Assembly: GCA_964632375.1 (NCBI GenBank)
Contig: CAZWBO010000003.1
Coordinates: 3,678 to 46,023 of the forward strand
Length of the DNA stretch: 42,346 nucleotides
Source of the DNA: an uncultured Candidatus Peribacteria bacterium
GTDB taxonomy: Bacteria > Patescibacteriota > Gracilibacteria > Peribacterales > Peribacteraceae
Direction of reading: 5' to 3'
Both the position numbers and the translations under genes were made by a program. Below the pieces are notes generated by a model, which worked only from the letters and a program-made list of their open reading frames with translations, was not told the DNA's origin and ran no database searches. Shown piece after piece: positions 8,918 through 30,680 of this stretch; the stretch's first letter is position 1; the number at the start of each line of letters is the position of its first letter.

Positions 8918-11500
8918 ATGCACGCACACGCCTCCATCGATGATGTCCTTGCGGCGCTCCACGCCGAGCGGCGCGGTCTTGACGACGCGGAGGTGGAGCG
9001 TCGCCGCGCGGAACACGGATGGAACGAGCTGCCCGAGAAGCATCGATCGTCTCTCCTACTTTTTCTGCGCCAGTTCAAGGACATCGTCGTCTACATTCTG
9101 GTCGTCGCACTCGTTCTGAGCGTGGTGTTACGATTGCTCGAGGGGCGTGCGAATGGATTCGAGGACCTGCTCGATGCGATCTTCATCTTGATCATCCTGC
9201 TGCTGAATGCGGCGCTCGGCTTCGTGCAGGAGTACAAGGCAGAGGAGGCGATTGCCGCGCTGCGCACGCTCACCGCACCGCAGGTGCGCGTGCGGCGCGA
9301 CGGCAAGGAACTGATGATTCCCTCGCGCGCCCTGGTGCCGGGCGATATCGTCGTCGTCGAGAGCGGAGACCGGATCGCGGCCGACGGCTGCATTGTCGCG
9401 GCATCGCACGTCGAGATGAACGAATCGAGCCTGACGGGAGAATCCCTCGCCGTTTCGAAGCAGGCCGTGCCGGTCGCGCGGGCGTCGTCCATTGCGGATC
9501 AGACGGACATGCTGTTCGCGGGTACGCACGTGACGCGCGGGTCGGCCGAGTACGTGGTGACGGCCATCGGTCTCCATACGGAGATCGGCAAGATCGCCGA
9601 CATCGTGTCGCGCACCGAGCTGCCCGAAACGCCCCTGGCGGCGCGCATGCGGCGGTTGAGCGGCGTGCTCGGCATCGTGGTGCTGTGCCTGTGCGCCGTG
9701 GTGGTGGGCGTGGGGATCGCGCGTCGCTTCGATCTGCTCTCCATTCTCCTGCTTGCCGTGAGCCTCGCGGTATCGGCGGTGCCGGAGGGATTGCCGGCCG
9801 TCGTCACGGCCACGCTCGCGGTGGGAGTGCGGCGCATGGCGGCGCGCAAAGCGTTCGTCCGGCAGCTGGATGCCCTCGAAACGCTCGGCAGCGTGACGGT
9901 GATCTGCAGCGACAAGACCGGCACCATCACCGAGAACCGCATGACGGTGCGTGAGGTATGGGTGGCCGACGACGGGCCCGGCGAGCGTGCGCTCGCCATC
10001 CGCATCGCGGCCTCGTGCAATCGTGCCGTCTTGCCCGATCTTGGCGACCCCACCGAACTCGGCCTGCTGCAGTTCGCCGAGCAGGAGCGGGTGGAGCGTC
10101 TGCTCATCGACGAGGAGGAAGTGCCGTTCACATCCGAAGAGAAGTACATGCAGACACGGCATGCGTTCGAAGAGCATGGAAAGAAGCGCATCGTGTCGTT
10201 CCTCAAGGGCGCGCCGGAGACTATCGCGGCGCACACGGGCAAGACATCGCTGCTCGAGCGCAGCGCGGAGATGTCTGCGCGCGGGCTGCGCGTGCTGGGA
10301 TTGGCGGTGCGCGACAACGATACCGGCAAGCCGCGCTTCGTGGGGCTCGTGGGCATGGAGGACCCGGTGCGTGCGGGCGTGCGCGAAGCGTTCGAGGAGG
10401 CGGAGCGTGCCGGCATCCGCACCATCATGATCACGGGCGACAGCCCGGAGACGGCGGCGGCGGTCGCGCGCGAGGTGGGCATTGGCTCGGAAGTGATGCG
10501 CGGCGAAGAGCTCGACACGCTCAAGCCGGCGGCGTTGCGCACCCGTCTCAAAACGGTGTCGGTGTTTGCCCGCGTCTCGCCGCTGCACAAGATGCAGATT
10601 CTCTCCGTGTTGCAGAAGAACGGCGAGGTGGTGGCCATGACGGGCGACGGCGTGAACGACGCGCCGGCGCTGAAGGCTGCCCACGTGGGAGTGGCCATGG
10701 GGCGCGTAGGCACGCAGGTGGCCAAGGAAGCGGCGAGCGTGGTGCTGGCCGACGACGATTACGCCACCATCGTGCTTGCCATCCGCGAGGGACGGCGCAT
10801 CTACGACAACATCCGCAAGTTTGTGCTGTACCTCCTGCGGGCGAACGTGGGGCAGATGCTGTTCATCACGGCATCGCTCATTGCGGGGTTGCCGCTGCCG
10901 TTCCTGCCGCTGCAGATTCTCTGGATCAACCTGATGACCGACGGGCTGCCCGCGCTGGCGCTCGGCGCGGAGCAGGCGGAAGAAGGCATCATGCGGCGTC
11001 CGCCGCGTCCCGCGAACGAGAGCATCTTCGCAGGCGAGTGGGTGCGCTTCGCCGTGTACGCGTTCACGGCGTTTTTGCTGCAGTTCGTGACGTTCGCGTG
11101 GTTGCTTGCGCACGGTGTGGAGGAGCAGCGAGCCCGCACGCTCCTCTTCACGCTGGCCATCCTCTTCGAGCTTCTGCTCGCCTTCACCACGCGCAGCAAC
11201 CGGCCGCTGTGGGAGATCGGCTTCTTCTCCAATCGCTTTCTGCTTGGCGCGGTGATGATTCCGCTCCTGCTCCAATTCGCACTGCTGTACACGCCGCTGC
11301 GGGGTGTGTTCATGCTGGTGCCGCTGACACTAGGCGAGTGGGAATTTGTTACAGGGTTGGCTCTCGCGACGTTCCTCGTGCTCGAATTCCTCAAGATGTT
11401 TCGTATCAGCAGCATGCTTGAATCGGCATTAAGCCGTTGGTGGACTGCACGGGGCGATAAGCGCCGCAATGTATCAACGCGGAAAACCAAGAGGGTGTAA
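8918..11500 (+). CDS. P2A-type (SERCA/PacL-like) cation-transporting P-type ATPase, probably Ca2+
   Basis: Motifs TGES, CSDKTGTITENRM, PEGLPAVVT, MITGDSPETA, MTGDGVNDAPALKAAHVGVAMG and LLWINLMTDGLPALALG. There is no CPC metal motif. Confidence 0.9.
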   Translation: MHAHASIDDVLAALHAERRGLDDAEVERRRAEHGWNELPEKHRSSLLLFLRQFKDIVVYILVVALVLSVVLRLLEGRANGFEDLLDAIFILIILLLNAALGFVQEYKAEEAIAALRTLTAPQVRVRRDGKELMIPSRALVPGDIVVVESGDRIAADGCIVAASHVEMNESSLTGESLAVSKQAVPVARASSIADQTDMLFAGTHVTRGSAEYVVTAIGLHTEIGKIADIVSRTELPETPLAARMRRLSGVLGIVVLCLCAVVVGVGIARRFDLLSILLLAVSLAVSAVPEGLPAVVTATLAVGVRRMAARKAFVRQLDALETLGSVTVICSDKTGTITENRMTVREVWVADDGPGERALAIRIAASCNRAVLPDLGDPTELGLLQFAEQERVERLLIDEEEVPFTSEEKYMQTRHAFEEHGKKRIVSFLKGAPETIAAHTGKTSLLERSAEMSARGLRVLGLAVRDNDTGKPRFVGLVGMEDPVRAGVREAFEEAERAGIRTIMITGDSPETAAAVAREVGIGSEVMRGEELDTLKPAALRTRLKTVSVFARVSPLHKMQILSVLQKNGEVVAMTGDGVNDAPALKAAHVGVAMGRVGTQVAKEAASVVLADDDYATIVLAIREGRRIYDNIRKFVLYLLRANVGQMLFITASLIAGLPLPFLPLQILWINLMTDGLPALALGAEQAEEGIMRRPPRPANESIFAGEWVRFAVYAFTAFLLQFVTFAWLLAHGVEEQRARTLLFTLAILFELLLAFTTRSNRPLWEIGFFSNRFLLGAVMIPLLLQFALLYTPLRGVFMLVPLTLGEWEFVTGLALATFLVLEFLKMFRISSMLESALSRWWTARGDKRRNVSTRKTKRV

Positions 11501-18324: not shown

Positions 18325-19140
18325 TCAGCTCTGCGCCAGCGCGATCCACTCTTCGATACTCAGAGTCTGCGGACGTCGATCCATGGCTATCCCCAGCCGT
18401 TCCAGGCGTTCTGCCACCTCGTGGAACGTCCCCAGCGTGTTGCGCAGCATCTTCCGTTTCTGGCCGAAGGCGATCTTGGTGAGCTTGAAGATCTGCTCGA
18501 TGGTCTTCGCATCGGCCTTGGGCTGCGCGAAGCACTCGACGTGCAGCACGGCGGAATCGACGGCTGGCGGCGGCAGGAAGGCGCTCGGTGCTACCCGGCA
18601 CGCGATGCGCGGCGTGCCGAAGAGCCCGACGAGGATGGTGAGGATGCCGGCATCGTCGATATCCACGATCTTCTCGGCCACTTCGCGCTGGATCAAGAGT
18701 GTCATCGACGTGGGAATCGTCGGCGATTCCAAAAACGCGTGCCGCAGTAATGGGGAGGTGATGTGATAGGGAATATTGGCGACGATCTTGTAGGGATCGG
18801 CGGGGAAGGGGACGTGGAGGGCGTTACCGTGGACGAGGGTTAATTGGTTGATTGGTTTATTGGTTGATTGGATGGGTCGTAGGAAATCCTGCAAGAGGGG
18901 AAGAAGGCGCTGGTCGAACTCGATGGCGGTGACGCGGCCGGCTGTTTGCACGAGCTCGCGCGTGAGCACGCCGATGCCGGGGCCGATCTCGACCACGTGG
19001 TCCGTCTTTTCGATATCGGCCGTGTTCACGATGGTTTCCAGCACGTCTTCGTCGACCAAGAAGTGCTGGCCGAGATCGGTATTCAGTTTCAGATGGTGAG
19101 CCTGGAGGAAGGCTTTGATCTCGTCGCGCAAGCTCAGCAT
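18325..19140 (-). CDS. rsmA: 16S rRNA (adenine1518/1519-N6)-dimethyltransferase
   Basis: GQHFLVD, VVEIGPGIGVLT and IVANIPYHITSPLL motifs. Confidence 0.9.
   Translation of the reverse strand: MLSLRDEIKAFLQAHHLKLNTDLGQHFLVDEDVLETIVNTADIEKTDHVVEIGPGIGVLTRELVQTAGRVTAIEFDQRLLPLLQDFLRPIQSTNKPINQLTLVHGNALHVPFPADPYKIVANIPYHITSPLLRHAFLESPTIPTSMTLLIQREVAEKIVDIDDAGILTILVGLFGTPRIACRVAPSAFLPPPAVDSAVLHVECFAQPKADAKTIEQIFKLTKIAFGQKRKMLRNTLGTFHEVAERLERLGIAMDRRPQTLSIEEWIALAQS
18842..18872. repeat. tandem 8-nt oligorepeat, ATTGGTTN x4, in frame inside rsmA
   Basis: aattggttg attggttt attggttg attgga. It encodes STNKPINQL in RsmA, in a segment about 7 aa longer than the E. coli KsgA equivalent as I recall that sequence. 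Confidence 0.85.
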
Positions 19141-19263
19141 GGTCTGAGCATGACTTCTTCAATCCTTTCGGTAAAGAATATTTCGCCGCATGCGCCATTC
19201 TCTGATCCATTCGTTCTAGGCGCTGATTTCTGTCTTCTGCCTTCCGACTTCCGGTCTCATTTC

Positions 19264-19291
19264 TTGACTCGTCCTGCTGCATCGGTACACT
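19264..19291 (+). promoter_or_regulatory. sigma70-like promoter TTGACT-N16-TACACT
   Basis: Hexamers read directly. The predicted start site falls about 19298-19300, on the ATG of the leader ORF. Confidence 0.4.
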
Positions 19292-19299
19292 GCCCGCAC

Positions 19300-19374
19300 A
19301 TGGCTTGTCAGACTTCTTCGTTCGGCTACTGGTTCTCCTTTACGCAGGGGAAGTTGCCGATGTGTCTGAACTAG
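19300..19374 (+). CDS. candidate regulatory leader peptide MACQTSSFGYWFSFTQGKLPMCLN
   Basis: 24-codon ORF with Phe, Tyr, Trp, Phe and Phe codons clustered at 19321-19341, 88 nt upstream of the DAHP synthase start. A T6 tract lies at 19436-19441. Confidence 0.4.
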   Translation: MACQTSSFGYWFSFTQGKLPMCLN

Positions 19375-19462
19375 CTTGATCCACGACTCATTCGCACCTT
19401 CCCCCAGTAGGCGGAGGGGTGTTTCCCGCGTGTCCTTTTTTATCTCTCTTTCCCTCACTTGT

Positions 19463-20500
19463 ATGGCAACGAGACGATTACTTCCCACGGCAGAGCAGAT
19501 CGATGCCGATTACCCTGTCGATGCCGATCGCATTGCCGCGGATCGCGCGACCATCAACGGTTTGCTGCGTATGAATGGCAATACCACGAAGAAGCTGCTG
19601 GTGATTGTCGGTCCCTGTTCGGCTTACCCGTTTGAGTCGGTGGAACGGGTAGCCGAATCGCTAGCGCGTTTGCAGGAAGAAATTGATGAACGCGTGAAGA
19701 TCATCATGCGTTTCTACACAGAGAAGCCCCGGACGAACAAAGGGTGGCAGGGGATGAAGGTGCAGCCGAATCCGCTCAGCGATCGTTCCGATATGGTCGA
19801 GGGCATTCAGGCGTGCCGCGCAGAGGCGTCGAAGCTCAGCCGGATATTGCCATTGGCTGACGAGATGGTCTTCCCCGAAAACGCGCCGTACATGACTCCG
19901 GCATTGAGTTACATTGCAGTCGGCGCTCGAACGGTGACGAGCCAATCGCATCGCAATGCTGCTTCAGGATTACCCAGTGCGGTGGGATTCAAGAACAACA
20001 TGGACGGTTGCATCGAAGATGCAGTGGACGGAATGACCGTTGCGCAATCTCCACAAACGTACAATTCTGGCGGATACGAAGTGACTTCCGACGGTAACCC
20101 CGATGCGCACATCATCCTGCGGGGAGGTAAGAGCGGTCCCAACTACGATGCAGATCACTTGAACATGGCAGGCCAATTGCTCTCGAAGCTCCCGCCTTCC
20201 GTAACCGGTAACCGTCTGATTGTCGATGCGGGGCATGGTAATTCAGGCAAGGTGGCGACAAATCAGATTATGGTTGCGCGGAATGTGCTACAGGGTATTC
20301 GCGATCGTCGCGACGGATACCAGCTTGTGGGCGGTCTCATGATCGAGGCGCATGTGAAGAATGGGCATCAGAAGATTCATACGGGAATGGATCCCGAAGT
20401 ATCTATTACCGATGACTGTCTGGCTCTTCCACAGACAGAGGATCTACTCCGAGAGCTTGCTGATATGCTGGATAAGGCCCATGCGACTGCTATGGTTTGA
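19463..20500 (+). CDS. aroG: class I (AroF/G/H-type) 3-deoxy-7-phosphoheptulonate (DAHP) synthase
   Basis: From ATG 19463: MATRRLLPTAEQIDADYP... It contains LLVIVGPCS, KIIMRFYTEKPRTNKGWQG, VGARTVTSQSHR, AVGFKNNMDG, HIILRGG and a layout colinear with E. coli AroG. GC is visibly lower than in neighbouring genes. Confidence 0.85.
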   Translation: MATRRLLPTAEQIDADYPVDADRIAADRATINGLLRMNGNTTKKLLVIVGPCSAYPFESVERVAESLARLQEEIDERVKIIMRFYTEKPRTNKGWQGMKVQPNPLSDRSDMVEGIQACRAEASKLSRILPLADEMVFPENAPYMTPALSYIAVGARTVTSQSHRNAASGLPSAVGFKNNMDGCIEDAVDGMTVAQSPQTYNSGGYEVTSDGNPDAHIILRGGKSGPNYDADHLNMAGQLLSKLPPSVTGNRLIVDAGHGNSGKVATNQIMVARNVLQGIRDRRDGYQLVGGLMIEAHVKNGHQKIHTGMDPEVSITDDCLALPQTEDLLRELADMLDKAHATAMV

Positions 20501-20510
20501 TTGTACGACG

Positions 20511-20541
20511 GGGCTAGTGCTTTGGTACTAGCCCTTATCTT
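20511..20541 (+). terminator. rho-independent terminator after aroG
   Basis: GGGCTAGT-gctttggt-ACTAGCCC (perfect 8 bp) followed by TTATCTT. Confidence 0.6.
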
Positions 20542-20629
20542 CGACCATCGCTCACTCCCAGCCGGGAGCGAATGACGGTCGGGGTGCTTCGTCATGCTCA
20601 GCACAGGCTTTGTAGGTATTGGATTTTTG

Positions 20630-20658
20630 TTGACTCCCAAAAATGCGGGGAGTACGTT
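20630..20658 (+). promoter_or_regulatory. promoter candidate TTGACTCCCAAAA...TACGTT (N17)
   Basis: It shares the TTGACTCCCAAAA motif with 21293-21305. Confidence 0.3.
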
Positions 20659-20776
20659 TTCGGCAGTGATCTACAAGTTGCTCTGCGCTCTTGGCCTTCT
20701 GCCCGCGTACTGTTGCGTTGCCGCAATGGCCGCACGGCGGCGGGTGCGTTGGTAGATCATCTCTCTTGATTACCAG

Positions 20777-20809
20777 CCTTCCCGTCGTCGCGGGGAGGGA
20801 TTTTTTTTT
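20777..20809 (+). terminator. strong rho-independent terminator
   Basis: CCTTCCCG-tcgtcg-CGGGGAGG, then ga and T9. Confidence 0.7.
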
Positions 20810-20909
20810 GTTCTTTCTTATCAAACCGCTCGTCTCCCGCTCTTTAGGAAACCAGAATGCCTCTGGTTGCGAGGGGGCGGGAGAGCGGGTGGAATAACGG
20901 GAGTACATC

Positions 20910-21221
20910 ATGTGTGAGGCAACGACAGTGGCGGAGTGCACGGTGGTCGACCTGTCGGCAGTGGTTGAGAACGCGCTGAGGCGCGGTGAGCGTGGAGGTG
21001 CGGCTCATCGCATCCTGTTCGATACCGGCATGCTGCATTTCCTACAGCAGCATGCTCGTCCTGAGTCGACGGATGATCCGCTGCCCCACGAAACGGGCTA
21101 TGGATCGTTCGGGAATGCGGAAGGCGCCAAAATCATCCTCTCTCGCATCATTGCGGGATACGATTACCCGGTGCCGCACGTCCTGGAAGCAATCGAGCAG
21201 ATGCGCCAGGCTGTCGCATGA
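20910..21221 (+). CDS. hypothetical small protein (103 aa)
   Basis: ATG preceded by GGGAG 6 nt upstream, and the ORF is followed by a strong hairpin terminator. No family recognised. Confidence 0.45.
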   Translation: MCEATTVAECTVVDLSAVVENALRRGERGGAAHRILFDTGMLHFLQQHARPESTDDPLPHETGYGSFGNAEGAKIILSRIIAGYDYPVPHVLEAIEQMRQAVA

Positions 21222-21243
21222 ACTCCTGCTCCTATCCGCAGCC

Positions 21244-21282
21244 GCCGGCCTCCGCTCCTTCGGGAGCGAAAGGCCGGCTTTC
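21244..21282 (+). terminator. rho-independent terminator
   Basis: GCCGGCCT-ccgctccttcgggagcgaa-AGGCCGGC followed by TTT, with an inner CGCTCC/GGAGCG helix. Confidence 0.65.
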
Positions 21283-21292
21283 CCAAATCCCA

Positions 21293-21322
21293 TTGACTCC
21301 CAAAATCCTTCCCGCGTATGGT
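21293..21322 (+). promoter_or_regulatory. promoter candidate TTGACTCCCAAAATCCT...TATGGT (N18)
   Basis: The 14-mer actcccaaaatcct (21296-21309) recurs exactly at 22949-22962, upstream of infA. Confidence 0.3.
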
Positions 21323-21440
21323 TCCCGCAGTGCAATTCACTCTCTCCCTTCTCGGCATTCTCCGCAAGACGTCCAAGAACGTCCGCGTTTGCCGTGCCGG
21401 GAAGTCTGTGAGTTGATTACTGTATCGAATCGATTACTCC

Positions 21441-21467
21441 ACCCTTCCCTGCAGAGAAGGGTTTTTG
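21441..21467 (+). terminator. rho-independent terminator
   Basis: CCCTTC-cctgcaga-GAAGGG followed by TTTTTG. Confidence 0.55.
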
Positions 21468-21552
21468 TTCATTGTCATCACCCAGCGGATACTGCCGCCA
21501 ATCAACAATGGATGGTTGGTGGCAATGATCCGTTGGAAAATAGGAGTTTCTC

Positions 21553-21735
21553 ATGACCTTCGACGACGGCAGCGTGGACGATCAGCTGGTCCCCGAGGAC
21601 GACCAGGTGGTCGATCACGCGGGTAAGAAAAGCTCCCTCCTTCGCTTTCGGCTCCCTCGAGGACAGAATCCCCGGCGGGGCCGGTCTGCGGAGACAGGCG
21701 AAGTCGGCAAGTTGTCCATGACGACTTCCGACTAG
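21553..21735 (+). CDS. hypothetical small protein (60 aa; acidic N-half, basic C-half)
   Basis: ATG preceded by TAGGAG with a 6-nt spacer. No family recognised. Confidence 0.35.
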   Translation: MTFDDGSVDDQLVPEDDQVVDHAGKKSSLLRFRLPRGQNPRRGRSAETGEVGKLSMTTSD

Positions 21736-21795
21736 CATCGGAAACCAACGGTCTCCAGGCCCGACGTCGCGTACAGCGGCGGAGGGCCTTTTCCT

Positions 21796-21993
21796 GGCGG
21801 ACCCCATCCCCAACCCTTCCCCCGTCCACCCGCACGCCTGCCGGGGAAGGGAGCCGTTGAACGTTCTTCAAGCATTCTTCCCTCCCCGTGCTGGTCTCTG
21901 AGTTTGTGAAACAGAGCAGTCGTTCAATTGCTCGATAATGAGAATGGGTGGACGGGGGAAGGTGCCCCGCAGGGCGGATGGGGCCCCCCCGCC
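21796..21993. other. about 190-nt element closed by a long imperfect inverted repeat (structured RNA or MITE-like)
   Basis: ccttcccccgtccaccc (21815-21831) is the exact reverse complement of gggtggacgggggaagg (21946-21962). The outer pairs ccccatcc (21802-21809) / ggatgggg (21976-21983) and ggcgg/ccgcc extend the stem. The interior holds further hairpins (ttgaa/ttcaa, ctctg/cagag). Confidence 0.6.
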
Positions 21994-22034
21994 AGAGAAA
22001 TTGCATTCCCTTCTGATCTCCGTAGACTCACCTC

Positions 22035-22784
22035 ATGTCCCTCATCCAGATCTTTACTGCGGATGAACTTGTCTCGCTGCGCCGGGCGGGGAAGATTTTG
22101 CGGGAGTGCCTGCAGGAGGCGGCGAGGCAGGTGCAGCCGGGTGTGACGACGCTGGAGCTCGACGCCGTCGCCGAGAGATTCATCCGTTCGCATGAGGGGG
22201 CGACGCCGGCGTTCAAGGGCTACCACGGGTTCACAGGCACGCTCTGCACGTCGGTGAACGAGGAGGCGGTGCATGGGATTCCCGGTCCGTGCGTGCTGGA
22301 GGAAGGCGACATCGTGTCGCTCGACGGCGGCGTGATCGTCGACGGGCTGTACACCGACGCGTGCATCACGGTCGGCGTGGGGAAGATCGCGCCGGAGGCG
22401 CAGAAATTCCTCGATGCGACCGAGGAGGCGCTCCGCCTGGCGTGCAAGATGATCAAAGCCGGTATCCGCGCCGGCGACATCTCGCACACGATCCAGTCGT
22501 ACGTGGAGGGCAAAGGGTACAAATGCCTGCGCGCGCTCACGGGCCACGGGCTGGGGAAGACGCTGCACCAGTACCCGGATATTCCTAATGTCGGCAAGCC
22601 GGGCCAGGGCGCTCTCATTCCGGCCGGCACGATCCTCGCCATCGAGCCCATCACCTCCATGGGATCCGACGAGATCCGCGAATCCGACGACGGCTGGACG
22701 CTCTGCACGCGCGACGGCGCACTGGCGGCACACTTCGAGCACACGCTGTACATACGCGAGGATGGGTGTGAGATTTTGGCATAA
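22035..22784 (+). CDS. map: type I methionyl aminopeptidase
   Basis: 249 aa with typical MetAP-I metal-ligand context (SLDGGVIVDGLYTDA, GHGLGKTLHQ, LAIEP, HFEHT). Confidence 0.9.
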   Translation: MSLIQIFTADELVSLRRAGKILRECLQEAARQVQPGVTTLELDAVAERFIRSHEGATPAFKGYHGFTGTLCTSVNEEAVHGIPGPCVLEEGDIVSLDGGVIVDGLYTDACITVGVGKIAPEAQKFLDATEEALRLACKMIKAGIRAGDISHTIQSYVEGKGYKCLRALTGHGLGKTLHQYPDIPNVGKPGQGALIPAGTILAIEPITSMGSDEIRESDDGWTLCTRDGALAAHFEHTLYIREDGCEILA

Positions 22785-25198: not shown

Positions 25199-26194
25199 AT
25201 GCATATCATTCAGGAAGAAATCGGCCTACCGACATTCACGGTCACACCGGTGAAGAAGGGGGACGATACTCACGCGGTCTTCACCATCGCGCCGCTCCCG
25301 CCGGGGTACGCCATGACACTGGGCAACGGCCTGCGCCGCGTGCTCCTCTCCAGCCTTCCTGGCGCCGCCGTCTCGTCCGTCCGCATCAGCAGCGTGCAGC
25401 ACGAGTACACGACCATCAAGGGCGTGCGCGAGTCGATTCTCGATTTCACGCTCAACCTCAAGGGTCTGAAGATCCGCAAGCACCGCAAGGAGCCGGAAGT
25501 CATCACGCTCGAGGCCAAAGGCCCGGCCACGGTGACGGCGAAGGATCTCAAAGTGTCGTCCGACATCGAGATTCTCAACCCGGAGCTCGAGCTGCTCACG
25601 CTCGAGAAAGGCGCGTCCATCGACATGCAGATCACGATTGAGAAGGGCGTGGGGTACATCTCGGCATCCGAGCGCAACAAGAAGCAGAACGAGCCGGGGC
25701 TCATCTACATCGACGCCATCTACTCCCCGGTCATCAAAGTGCGCTTCGATGTCGAGGCGGCACGCGTCGGTCAGCGCACCGATCTCGAGAAGCTCACGCT
25801 GGACGTGAAGACGAACGGTTCGCTCACGGCCGAAGAGGCCATGCAATTCGCCTCGCAGCTGCTGCAGAGCTACTACGGGTACTTCGGATCCGACCAGAAG
25901 GTGGTGGAGCCGGAGTTCATCGCCGACTTCTCGCGCTCGGCCGCCGCGCACGTGGAAGACAGCACGCACACGCCGGTGAAGGAAACGTACACGCCCATCG
26001 AGATCCTCAATTTCTCGCCGCGCACGCTCAACGCGCTCATCAATGCCGGCGTGGGATCCATCGAGCAGCTCACGAAATGCACCGAGGCGACGCTCTCGAA
26101 CTTCCGCGGCTTCGGCGCCAAGGCGCTCGACGAGGTGAAGGCCACGCTCGGGGAACGCGGATTGAAATTGGCGTCCGACACGATGGATGCTTGA
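25199..26194 (+). CDS. rpoA: DNA-directed RNA polymerase subunit alpha
   Basis: 331 aa with an N-terminal dimerisation domain and C-terminal LNFSPRTLNALINAGVGSIEQL (alpha-CTD HhH). Confidence 0.95.
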   Translation: MHIIQEEIGLPTFTVTPVKKGDDTHAVFTIAPLPPGYAMTLGNGLRRVLLSSLPGAAVSSVRISSVQHEYTTIKGVRESILDFTLNLKGLKIRKHRKEPEVITLEAKGPATVTAKDLKVSSDIEILNPELELLTLEKGASIDMQITIEKGVGYISASERNKKQNEPGLIYIDAIYSPVIKVRFDVEAARVGQRTDLEKLTLDVKTNGSLTAEEAMQFASQLLQSYYGYFGSDQKVVEPEFIADFSRSAAAHVEDSTHTPVKETYTPIEILNFSPRTLNALINAGVGSIEQLTKCTEATLSNFRGFGAKALDEVKATLGERGLKLASDTMDA

Positions 26195-28482: not shown

Positions 28483-28685
28483 ACGTGTGGTGGGTGTTTG
28501 TGTGATTCGAACGAATCTGAATATGATACCAAAAAAAGACGTCGCCGGGTAGGGGATCTGCCCTCCGGAAAGCCGAGAGGCATTGCAAAAATGCTAGATG
28601 AAAGTTTGATATATGTTTGTCATTTCAGCCGAACACGCATTCCTCGAACCTTCATATATCCACTGCTATCCTTCATACTCATTCC

Positions 28686-30680
28686 ATGCCCGCATCTGCC
28701 CCGGATTTGCCGTCCCTCCCGTCACGATCTCCACTGCTGTTCGTTATCGGCGGGTTTGTCGTGCTCCTGCTGGGCATCTACGGGGCGTCACTCTCGAATG
28801 GGTTCGTGCGCTGGGATGACGGGCTGCTCATCTACGAGAACCCGGCGATCCGGCATATCTCGCCCTCGACGCTCAAGACAATCTTCACCAGCTACGATCC
28901 GGAGCTCTACATCCCGCTCACGTTCTTCAGCTACCAGATCGATTTTTTGTTCGGCGGCATGCATGCCTTCGTGTATCACCTGCAGAACCTGCTGTGGCAC
29001 GGTCTCAATACGCTCCTCGTTACCTGGCTCGCGTTCCTGCTCACGCGTCGGGGGTGGGCCGCGCTGACGGTGGGGTTGCTCTTCGCCGTCCATCCGCTGC
29101 AGGTGGAGGCAGTGGCGTGGGCGGCCGCGCGGAAAGACGTGCTATCGACATTCTTCTTCCTGTCCTCGATCATTGGGTATCTCTACGCGCGTGCGCGGGT
29201 ATCGCGGCGGCTGTACTGGTTCAGTGTCGGCCTGTTTCTGCTCGGCTTGCTCGCGAAAGTGTCGGTGATCACGCTGCCGCTGGTGCTTCTGTTGATCGAC
29301 GATCTGCAGGGGCGCACGAAGGATCGCAAGATGCTGACGGACAAATTGCCGTACTTCGTTCTGGCCGTCGTCTTCGGCATCGTGGCGGTGGTGGGGAAGC
29401 AGGGGGTGTTTGCGGCGGTGTCGCCGTGGCAGATGCTCCTGCTCGCCTGCCGCAGCACGGTCTTTTACCTGCAGGCGCTCGCGTGGCCCGCGTACTATGA
29501 CGTGCTCTATCCGTTCGACCGATCCATCGCAATCGCGGTGCCCGAGATACTGCTCTCGGTGCTGATCGTCCTCGGCATGATCGCTCTGGCGCTTGTGCTG
29601 TACCGACGGCAACGGTGGGTGTTCTTCGGCGTGTGCTTCTACCTGCTCACGCTCGCGCCGACGATGACGAACCTCATCAAAGCGAACCACACGTACCTCG
29701 GCTCCGATCGCTACGCGTACATACCGTCCATCGCCGTGTTCCTGCTGGTGGCGTACGGGCTGGCGCGCTGGGTGGAGACGCGCAGCCGCCAGTCGGCGCG
29801 CGAGCGCCTGGGGCTCATCGCCACCGCCTCGCTCGGCGTATTGGTGGTGGGGTTGGCAGTACGCAGCCACGTGCAGGCGGCGGTGTGGCGCAACAGCGAG
29901 GCGCTGTTCCTCAACGTACTGGCGCGGTACCCGGATTCCGACATCGCGCATAACAATCTCGGCAACGTGTACCGCCGCCAGGGGCGGTTGGACGACGCCA
30001 TGAAGCACCTGCAGGCCGCTCTCGCATCGGCGCCGGCCGACGCGAAGAACAACATCGCGAACGTGTTGCGTGCGCAGGGCGATCTCCCTGCCGCCGAGAA
30101 GAGCCTGCAGGAGGCGCTGGCCGCCAAGCCGAACGCGAAGATCTACGTGAACTTGGGGGCGGTGTATCGCAAACAGGGAAAGATGCTCGATGCACTGGCG
30201 CAGTACGAGAAGGCGCTGGCACTGGACCAGCAGAGCGCGGAAGCGCAGTTCGGCCTCGGCATCGTGTACGCCGAGATGGGCGAGACGCAGAAGGCATTGG
30301 ATGCCTACGCGGAAGCCATCAAGCTGCAGCCGCTCTACGCCGATGTGTACGTCAACCGCGGCGCGCTGCACGTCGCATCGAGCGAGTTCGACGAGGCACT
30401 CGCCGATTTCCAACAGGCCATCGAGATCGCGCCGGATTTTTCACAGGCGCACTACAATCTCGCCGTCCTCTACGAGAAGCTGGATCAGCCGGAACAAGCG
30501 AAGAAAGAGTACGAGGCGACGCTGCGCGTGCAGGACGACTACACGCCGGCGCACATCAACCTGGGCCTGCTCCTGCATGCGTCGGGCGACACGGACGGTG
30601 CGCGACGGCAGTTCCAGGCCATCCTTCGGTACGACCCGCAGAACCGCGCGGCACTCTCGGCCATCGAACAGTTGCGCTGA
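28686..30680 (+). CDS. GT-C-fold membrane glycosyltransferase-like protein with C-terminal TPR array (TMTC/PMT_2/DUF1736-like)
   Basis: From ATG 28686. FVRWDDGLLIYENPAIRHISP...YDPELYIPLTFFSYQIDF...YHLQNLLWHGLNTLLV...LFAVHPLQVEAVAWAAARKDVL, then many transmembrane segments and at least 6 TPRs (NNLGNVYRRQGRLDDAMKHLQAAL...). It is a paralogue of 40155-41741. Confidence 0.8.
   Translation: MPASAPDLPSLPSRSPLLFVIGGFVVLLLGIYGASLSNGFVRWDDGLLIYENPAIRHISPSTLKTIFTSYDPELYIPLTFFSYQIDFLFGGMHAFVYHLQNLLWHGLNTLLVTWLAFLLTRRGWAALTVGLLFAVHPLQVEAVAWAAARKDVLSTFFFLSSIIGYLYARARVSRRLYWFSVGLFLLGLLAKVSVITLPLVLLLIDDLQGRTKDRKMLTDKLPYFVLAVVFGIVAVVGKQGVFAAVSPWQMLLLACRSTVFYLQALAWPAYYDVLYPFDRSIAIAVPEILLSVLIVLGMIALALVLYRRQRWVFFGVCFYLLTLAPTMTNLIKANHTYLGSDRYAYIPSIAVFLLVAYGLARWVETRSRQSARERLGLIATASLGVLVVGLAVRSHVQAAVWRNSEALFLNVLARYPDSDIAHNNLGNVYRRQGRLDDAMKHLQAALASAPADAKNNIANVLRAQGDLPAAEKSLQEALAAKPNAKIYVNLGAVYRKQGKMLDALAQYEKALALDQQSAEAQFGLGIVYAEMGETQKALDAYAEAIKLQPLYADVYVNRGALHVASSEFDEALADFQQAIEIAPDFSQAHYNLAVLYEKLDQPEQAKKEYEATLRVQDDYTPAHINLGLLLHASGDTDGARRQFQAILRYDPQNRAALSAIEQLR

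Follow-up and report, generated by a model that had tools for sequence, protein, structure and literature searches.

The DAHP synthase locus and its leader ORF

The window analyzed here, the whole 42,346-nucleotide (nt) stretch taken from contig CAZWBO010000003.1 of an uncultured Candidatus Peribacteria bacterium, codes on its plus strand for a type I-alpha DAHP (3-deoxy-D-arabinoheptulosonate 7-phosphate) synthase, and our subject is the region directly upstream of this gene, a putative leader-peptide attenuator. The gene (19463..20500, 345 amino acids) had been called aroG-type in a preliminary description of the DNA, and this is borne out by a PF00793 match (9.4e-44) and by the best PDB matches, to E. 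coli AroF (6agl, 1.7e-51) and AroG (1kfl/1qr7, 5e-49). The protein keeps the residue at every invariant column of 12 aligned sequences (GPCS, KPRT, GARxxxxxxHR, and the SITDxC block). Its start at 19463 has no Shine-Dalgarno sequence and a pyrimidine-rich upstream region, like many genes in the window.

Between the DAHP synthase gene and the divergent ksgA gene is a small open reading frame (ORF) at 19300..19374 on the plus strand, coding for the peptide MACQTSSFGYWFSFTQGKLPMCLN in 24 codons followed by a TAG stop codon (19372-19374). It contains the codon cluster TTC GGC TAC TGG TTC TCC TTT (19321..19341, plus strand; FGYWFSF), in which three codons specify Phe, one Tyr, and one Trp, and it is separated from the DAHP synthase ATG by a spacer of 88 nt (19375-19462). 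Upstream of the ORF, a sigma-70-type promoter can be read from the sequence (19264..19291, plus strand), with a TTGACT hexamer (19264-19269) and a TACACT hexamer (19286-19291) flanking a 16-nt spacer; the latter ends 8 nt 5' of the leader ATG at 19300. The preliminary description had reported the promoter, the leader ORF with its aromatic cluster, the length of the spacer, a GGGGAAG/CTTCCCC complementarity, and the positions of a GGAGGGG motif and a T6 tract, and reading of the sequence confirms every one of these coordinates.

Taken singly, these features are weak. A plus-strand small ORF with at least five aromatic residues in seven codons arises in 95 of 5,000 dinucleotide shuffles of the intergenic region (P ~0.02), and the one promoter-like site found in 18800-20800, against 1.1 expected, is not significant alone. 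Two stretches with at least five aromatic residues in seven codons are present in the six frames of the 42-kb window; the second, AYWWWGWQY (29836-29862, plus strand), is out of frame with the ORF of a TPR protein (28617-30680) and is probably meaningless. By sequence comparison, it is conservation in relatives, rather than single-feature statistics, that lifts the leader features above chance.

Conservation of the leader and its promoter

We compared the window with loci from L001 (a Ca. Peribacteria metagenome-assembled genome [MAG]), L010 (Ca. Peribacter riflensis), L013, L020, and L022/L023 (Ca. Peribacteria RIFCSPHIGHO2_01_FULL). All five relatives share the synteny of the window by tblastn and called genes, in that minus-strand comEC and ksgA are accompanied by a divergently oriented DAHP synthase gene, and all five have an ORF of 23 to 27 codons between ksgA and the DAHP synthase gene. 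The leader peptides are MSRQTFCFGAFWFSYFTEGKELTRLSN (L001), MAQRQSYFYGFFFTPYLAGKEPYDLK (L010), MVPRTFSIGFTFPLYRAGKAPRI (L013), MTHSGIFFGAYWYPFSAGKVLLRLS (L020), and MVYSTLNYGAYTFSFTAEGVCVRD (L022). Every leader has four to seven Phe, Tyr, or Trp codons clustered round a conserved Gly; Phe and Tyr codons are present in all six, and Trp codons in the window, L001, and L020. Insertions and deletions between the window and L001 leader ORFs are all multiples of three. The short ORF and the aromatic codons singled out in the preliminary description are thus conserved at five syntenic Peribacteria/Peregrinibacteria loci. KsgA is 61 to 66% identical in all pairs of the five loci compared (window, L001, L010, L020, and L022), and the DAHP synthases are 51 to 61% identical among L001, L010, L020, and L022 but only 39 to 42% identical to that of the window. 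The leader has therefore been retained while the enzyme diverged strongly.

The promoter position is also shared by four of the five relatives. Promoter-like sites are TTGACA-16-TAAAGT in L001, TTGACT-16-TACACT in L010, TTGACA-16-TACAAT in L020, and TTGACT-16-TAAAAT in L022, with gaps from the -10 hexamer to the leader ATG of 10, 11, 12, and 10 nt, respectively, and a four-way leader alignment shows no variation in TTGA of the -35 hexamer. In L002 and L006, two loci outside this group, a scan places the -10 hexamer 7 nt 5' of an ATG in the leader frame, such that the gap is 7 to 12 nt in seven loci (window, L001, L010, L020, L022, L002, and L006). L016, L017, and L019 have a similar placement by eye, at 6 to 10 nt (10 nt in L016 and L017). 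The near-leaderless layout proposed for the window thus recurs, with the start itself predicted.

Our estimates of the 5' untranslated region (UTR) assume that transcription starts 6 to 8 nt past the -10 hexamer. In the window, where 8 nt separate the end of this hexamer from the leader ATG, that would give a 5' UTR of about 0 to 2 nt and leave no room for a Shine-Dalgarno sequence; this start is predicted from promoter position. Across the loci the predicted 5' UTRs are 0 to 5 nt, which is leaderless by the usual definition as it is given in the account of Deinococcus deserti transcripts (PMC4007540). We note that most genes in the window are without a Shine-Dalgarno sequence and that C/U-rich tracts stand ahead of many other starts. 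TAGAAT and TATACT are placed 6 nt upstream of the ATGs at 8918 and 13754; the survey of start regions also covered those at 25199, 34029, 33047, and 22035. The placement of these hexamers at 8918 and 13754 suggests leaderless mRNAs and that these may be a habit of the organism.

RNA segments and a predicted fold switch

The free RNA of the window folds as two hairpins, which we describe by four segments, all on the plus strand. Hairpin 1:2 (19302..19376, -26.9 kcal/mol) has the aromatic codons in its 5' arm, together with segment 1 (UCUCCU, 19334-19339), and segment 2, AGGGGAAG, in its 3' arm; its outer stem, GUCAGAC/GUCUGA, is common to the window and L001. Segment 2 extends over AGGGGAAGUUGC (19346..19357) with the core GGGGAAG (19347-19353), and can pair with either segment 1 or segment 3. 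Segment 3 is GCACCUUCCCCC (19394..19405), within which are CTTCCCC (19398-19404) and the core CCUUCCCCC, and its partner is either segment 2 or segment 4. The 2:3 pairing, a candidate antiterminator, has a predicted energy of -23.7 kcal/mol, and the window has a single instance of the arrangement GGGGAAG-N30-60-CTTCCCC, which none of 100 shuffles reproduces.

Hairpin 3:4 (19382..19432) is terminator-like. Its inner stem spans 19393-19421 (-13.8 kcal/mol) with GGAGGGGUG as the 3' arm, and with a further CACG/CGUG stem outside this one the hairpin reaches 19382-19432 (-19.0 kcal/mol). A U-rich tail follows (19422..19441), with UUU (UGUUU) directly after the inner stem and U6 (19436-19441) 3 nt (UCC) past the outer stem. 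The preliminary description had found no textbook terminator hairpin by eye; a hairpin does exist, although the poor U tract stands. GGAGGGG (19413-19419) is positioned as described, but it is the 3' arm of the terminator-like hairpin at 19393-19421 rather than a ribosome-binding site. We did consider an in-frame GTG at 19430 as the DAHP synthase start, with GGAGGGG as its Shine-Dalgarno sequence in the manner of ermC-type translational attenuation, and rejected it: the ATG at 19463 aligns with the N termini of the closest homologues, L001 has no conserved in-frame GTG, and the counterparts of GGAGGGG in relatives are terminator 3' arms.

A stalled ribosome was modeled as a footprint barred from pairing, which reached from 15 nt 5' to 12 nt 3' of the A-site codon. 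In the free window RNA the probability of the terminator pairs is 0.93 and that of the 2:3 core 0.00. These values become 0.00 and 1.00 with the footprint on F8, 0.07 and 0.86 on Y10, and 0.03 and 0.97 on F12, with an even split on W11 (0.48 and 0.47). A ribosome on F14, the last aromatic codon, keeps the terminator (0.94 and 0.00) because its footprint covers segment 2. The pattern extends to the relatives: the terminator pairs form in the free RNA with a probability of 0.83 to 1.00 in five of the six Peribacteria-type loci (only 0.17 in L001), and a footprint on a central aromatic codon lowers this to 0.00 to 0.07 in all six and raises the 2:3 core to ~0.9 to 1.0 in the five loci scored (L020 was left out). 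Minimum-free-energy predictions likewise change from 1:2 plus 3:4 to 2:3 in all six loci when the central aromatic codons are masked. The folding check suggested in the preliminary description accordingly yields alternative structures: 1:2 plus 3:4 and 2:3 are predicted to be mutually exclusive, with the ribosome position selecting between them.

The paired blocks are those that are best conserved. A purine-rich segment 2 is present in all five relatives, as GGGGAAGG in four and GGAAGGCG in L022, and in each it can pair with a segment 3 containing CCUUCC. The GGGGAAG core is identical in the window, L001, L010, L013, and L020, the segment 3 core CCUUCCCCC is invariant in the window, L001, L010, and L013, and no invariant block in the leader alignments is longer than GGGGAAG and CCTTCCCCC. 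RNAalifold on four sequences returns a sole consensus helix, the pairing of the invariant segment 2 and 3 blocks. L022, whose register-shifted helix is misaligned by MAFFT, keeps the 2:3 helix as GGAAGGCG/CGCCUUCC, and the reading frame over its GGAAGG core is also shifted. The constraint on segment 2 is thus at the level of RNA and not of peptide, and the "GK" of the other leader peptides is a by-product.

The terminator 3' arms differ among the six loci (GGAGGGGUG, GAGGUGGUG, GGAAGGC, GGAAG, GGUGAAGG, and GGAAGGUG), and in every case their pairing partner is the block to which segment 2 can also pair. The L010 terminator, GCCUUCC-CCCAGC-GGAAGGC-GUUUUUUU, is a textbook one with a 7-bp stem and a 6-nt loop, and in L020 and L022 the stem is directly followed by UGUUUUUG (U5); the range among the relatives is U5 to U7.

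Several side observations concern these loci. L020 has a second aromatic mini-ORF at 1709-1759, MCQAIRFGFFFPFSTG, with a TTG start and lying ~130 nt 5' of the leader; the two are similar (CQ...FG.FF.PFS), and the mini-ORF may be what is left of a tandem duplicate. L010 and L013 have an ORF between the attenuator and the DAHP synthase gene (2134-2445, 103 amino acids, and 2063-2446, 127 amino acids, respectively); the two are 38% identical, have no Pfam match, and are absent from the window, L001, L020, and L022. A search of genome contigs for the DNA pattern TGGTTCTCC...AGGGGAAG matched only the L001 organism (L008) and, by chance, Faecalicatena DNA (L007), and metagenome contigs gave no match to this pattern.

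Similar leaders in other lineages

In three other locus groups, genes for related DAHP synthases (38 to 41% identical) are also found behind aromatic leaders, and these have canonical terminators. The L002 leader (ORF at 2638-2766) ends with ...NMNHYFGYWFSRSGA, and those of L016 to L018, one of which is a Salinisphaera gammaproteobacterial MAG, with ...SN[KM]FYGYWFSR[RT]GA (1133-1252 in L016 and 1134-1253 in L017). These L002 and L016-L018 leaders are 39 to 42 codons long and end [FY][FY]GYWFSRxGA, followed by a canonical terminator. The leaders of L006, MNTVAQQFYFYFFTPDTSGGAVFV, and L019, MNMTAQQFYFYFYTPDTSGGAVFA, are 5' of pheA-DAHP synthase operons, and that of L012 ends ...PFCVSFFYFSYFSQELGGQ. 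Intrinsic terminators, G+C-rich hairpins with a U run right behind them, are present in L010 and L012, and by eye or fold in L002, L006, L016, L019, L020, and L022; the hairpins are directly followed by U5 to U9 in L010, L020, L022, and all leaders outside Peribacteria. No leader adjoins the DAHP synthase gene in L005, L009, or L024: in L005 LexA is encoded immediately upstream, in L009 the contig is cut after an upstream gene, and in L024 (Parcubacteria) the gene is inside an aro operon.

The window leader shares GYWFS with those of L002 and L016-L018, with different codons (TTC GGC TAC TGG TTC TCC in the window versus TTT GGG TAT TGG TTT AGT in the Salinisphaera type; Ser is TCC versus AGT/AGC). 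This could reflect common descent of a leader-plus-enzyme module, selection on the peptide, or coincidence. It is doubtful, but conceivable, that the leader and this DAHP synthase subfamily travel across phyla as a module in which selection acts on [FY]-G-(x)-[FY]-W-[FY]-S as a peptide. If so, the nascent chain itself would contribute to ribosome arrest, beyond hungry codons alone, and the switch in Ca. Peribacter riflensis, an organism reported to have few amino acid biosynthesis genes (PMC4736985), would govern a stand-alone DAHP synthase feeding a shared or noncanonical pathway.

A proposed attenuation mechanism and its alternatives

Conservation in five related genomes makes a classical ribosome-sensed attenuator the most likely explanation, and from the comparisons and the folding model we consider it quite probable that the element is a ribosome-mediated, leader-peptide transcription attenuator that sets DAHP synthase gene expression against the charging of Phe, Tyr, and Trp tRNAs. 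Transcription would start at about 19298, putting the leader ATG at 19300 at or beside the 5' end of the transcript, where its translation would need no Shine-Dalgarno sequence. With aromatic aminoacyl-tRNAs in good supply, the ribosome would pass FGYWFSF and reach the TAG, segment 2 (AGGGGAAG) would be in, or back in, hairpin 1:2, segment 3 (CCUUCCCCC) would pair with segment 4 (GGAGGGGUG), and transcription would end in the U-rich tail before the gene. When any of the Phe, Tyr, or Trp tRNAs is scarce, a ribosome stalled on codons 8 to 12 would cover segment 1, segment 2 would pair with segment 3, hairpin 3:4 would be blocked, and RNA polymerase would presumably read into the DAHP synthase gene.

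Some observations weigh against this interpretation. The footprint on the stop codon still favors 2:3 in the window (0.70), L001, and L022; this equilibrium model ignores the bulk of the ribosome, such that termination in times of plenty must rely on hairpin 1:2 re-forming. The fold of 19298-19470 is no more stable than its shuffles (z = -0.52), and a simple terminator scan of the window locus finds no canonical terminator. The U6 tract follows by 3 nt an outer stem of only 4 bp, itself across a 7x7 internal loop. L013 has no promoter recognizable by scan, and its terminator is weak, with a stem of just 5 bp. RNAalifold on the four sequences also shows essentially no compensatory covariation in the helices, since the paired cores are invariant. 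The U tract is the weakest part of the element in the window, and termination here is a prediction from the hairpin.

The main rival to attenuation is that the same leader and pairings act posttranscriptionally, on mRNA stability or on access to the DAHP synthase start, which has no Shine-Dalgarno sequence; GGGGAAG could, for example, pair with CUUUCCC (19449-19455), or with a second CCUUCCCC at 2984-2991 in L001. The weak U tracts in the window and L013 fit such a role, as does the stalled-ribosome model of L001, which, when unconstrained, pairs segment 2 with the second CCUUCCCC just 5' of the ATG, and one paper refers to C. glutamicum aroR as a "translational regulatory leader peptide" (PMC7356990). 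However, the hairpins in L010, L020, L022, and the non-Peribacteria leaders are directly followed by U5 to U9, as for intrinsic terminators, and the second CCUUCCCC has no conserved counterpart in L010, L013, or L022. CU-rich upstream regions are moreover general in the genome, and complementarity to a purine-rich block is therefore expected anyway. We regard posttranscriptional action as rather unlikely.

It is still less probable that the element is an operator, a riboswitch, or another RNA or DNA site bound by a protein or ligand, or that the ORF codes for a functional aromatic micropeptide, with no sensing of tRNA charging in either case. That the Salinisphaera-type clade again encodes [FY]-G-(x)-[FY]-W-[FY]-S, but in other codons, does hint at selection on the peptide, and the helices are without covariation support. 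Against this, loci differ in the number and order of their aromatic residues and yet keep the cluster, as known attenuator leaders do, the ORF always precedes a terminator-like hairpin overlapping the complement of the ORF's 3' part, it is precisely Phe, Tyr, and Trp whose precursors the regulated gene makes, and no Rfam family, T-box included, is matched. That both the ORF and the complementarity arose by chance in a divergent promoter region and have no function would account for the weak single features (a promoter count equal to expectation, ORF P ~0.02, fold z of -0.52), but is very improbable and, as far as sequence comparison can tell, already contradicted, in that the start position, length class, aromatic cluster, and segments 2 and 3 are conserved in six lineages, and the promoter in five, even though KsgA is 61 to 66% and the DAHP synthases 39 to 61% identical.

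The DAHP synthase gene and its surroundings

The window DAHP synthase is a long branch. Its closest relatives among 5.8 billion proteins are at most ~42% identical, the best being that of L001 (P0002), and no identical protein is on record. A protein-pattern scan of genome contigs with the window DAHP synthase found no relative because of this long branch. The gene had been described as an orphan, which is true locally: the ~1.5 kb downstream (20501-22034), before the methionine aminopeptidase gene, has only short ORFs with no Pfam matches, and tblastn with the neighbors of L001, L010, L013, L020, and L022 finds no remnants of aromatic-pathway genes in 20500-22035. It does not hold for two relatives, in which the DAHP synthase gene is followed by PDT/PDH and DHQ synthase genes (L001) or by an aminotransferase gene (L020); in L010 and L013 an AA_kinase gene is found 3' of it. 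The G+C content is 0.54 to 0.59 across 19001-22000 and ~0.61 to 0.64 in the flanks.

Comparison with known systems

Very little is known about gene regulation in the candidate phyla radiation (CPR), and to our knowledge nothing has been shown experimentally for Peribacteria; the element is a clean, conserved regulatory element in this poorly understood lineage. If it is a classical attenuator, it implies tight coupling of transcription and translation, and routine translation of leaderless mRNAs, in the Peribacteria lineage. It would also mark the output of DAHP synthase as matched to the supply of Phe, Tyr, and Trp, which is informative for organisms described as taking amino acids from outside. 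A full-text literature search combining candidate phyla radiation, leader peptide, and attenuation found no paper. No Rfam family matches the window or nine related loci at the gathering score, and at E <= 10 region 19100-19560 gives only chance-level matches to unrelated families. The leader family is thus absent from Rfam, and with more than 100 Peregrinibacteria/Patescibacteria DAHP synthase loci visible, a covariance model for annotation is possible.

The E. coli DAHP synthase genes are under the TyrR and TrpR repressors, and the trp, pheA, and pheST operons are attenuated by leader peptides (PMC11802643). The window element resembles the enterobacterial pheL-pheA and trpL-trpE systems in its four-segment logic, with 1:2 plus 3:4 set against 2:3, in the regulatory codons at segment 1, and in the terminator-like hairpin ahead of the first structural gene. 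In contrast, the pheL and trpL leaders have Shine-Dalgarno sequences and respond to one amino acid each, whereas the window leader has no Shine-Dalgarno sequence and three codon types; they control terminal-branch genes, and the window leader fronts the common entry step. The Rfam Phe_leader and Trp_leader models match neither the window nor the related loci.

A leaderless arrangement of attenuators also has a parallel. In Deinococcus deserti, 14 putative attenuator leaders are described on leaderless transcripts, including that of trpEGD (PMC4007540), and as in that account, no more than a few nucleotides, if any, would lie between the (here predicted) 5' end and the leader start codon in the window. 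The D. deserti starts were mapped experimentally, whereas that of the window is predicted from promoter position, and a word search of the paper's main text finds no mention of DAHP synthase. In Corynebacterium glutamicum, too, attenuator leaders are described as translatable without a ribosome-binding site, as for the ilvB leader (cited in PMC4046766).

The closest precedent is C. glutamicum aroR, a leader with Phe-Tyr-Phe codons upstream of aroF, which codes for a DAHP synthase (PMC11802643; the earliest mention is in PMC4046766). By the accounts in these papers, stalling at this leader under Phe limitation raises aroF transcription (Neshat et al. 2014, cited in both). From its description, aroR-aroF is similar to the window in having a short ORF with aromatic codons directly 5' of a DAHP synthase gene. 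The preliminary description had thought such an arrangement unusual, but aroR is a precedent for it (PMC11802643, PMC4046766), and no new principle is involved, as aromatic leader-peptide attenuation of a DAHP synthase gene is reported to be established in C. glutamicum. There are differences, however: C. glutamicum belongs to the Actinobacteria and the window to the CPR/Peribacteria, the window leader has a Trp codon and a denser cluster (five of seven codons), and C. glutamicum aroF transcription is described as unaffected by Tyr supply. The element is thus precedented, with the same logic as trpL and pheL and the same target as aroR; new are the absence of an Rfam model, its presence in a CPR lineage, and the joining of Phe, Tyr, and Trp codons in one leader, as in the window, L001, and L020.

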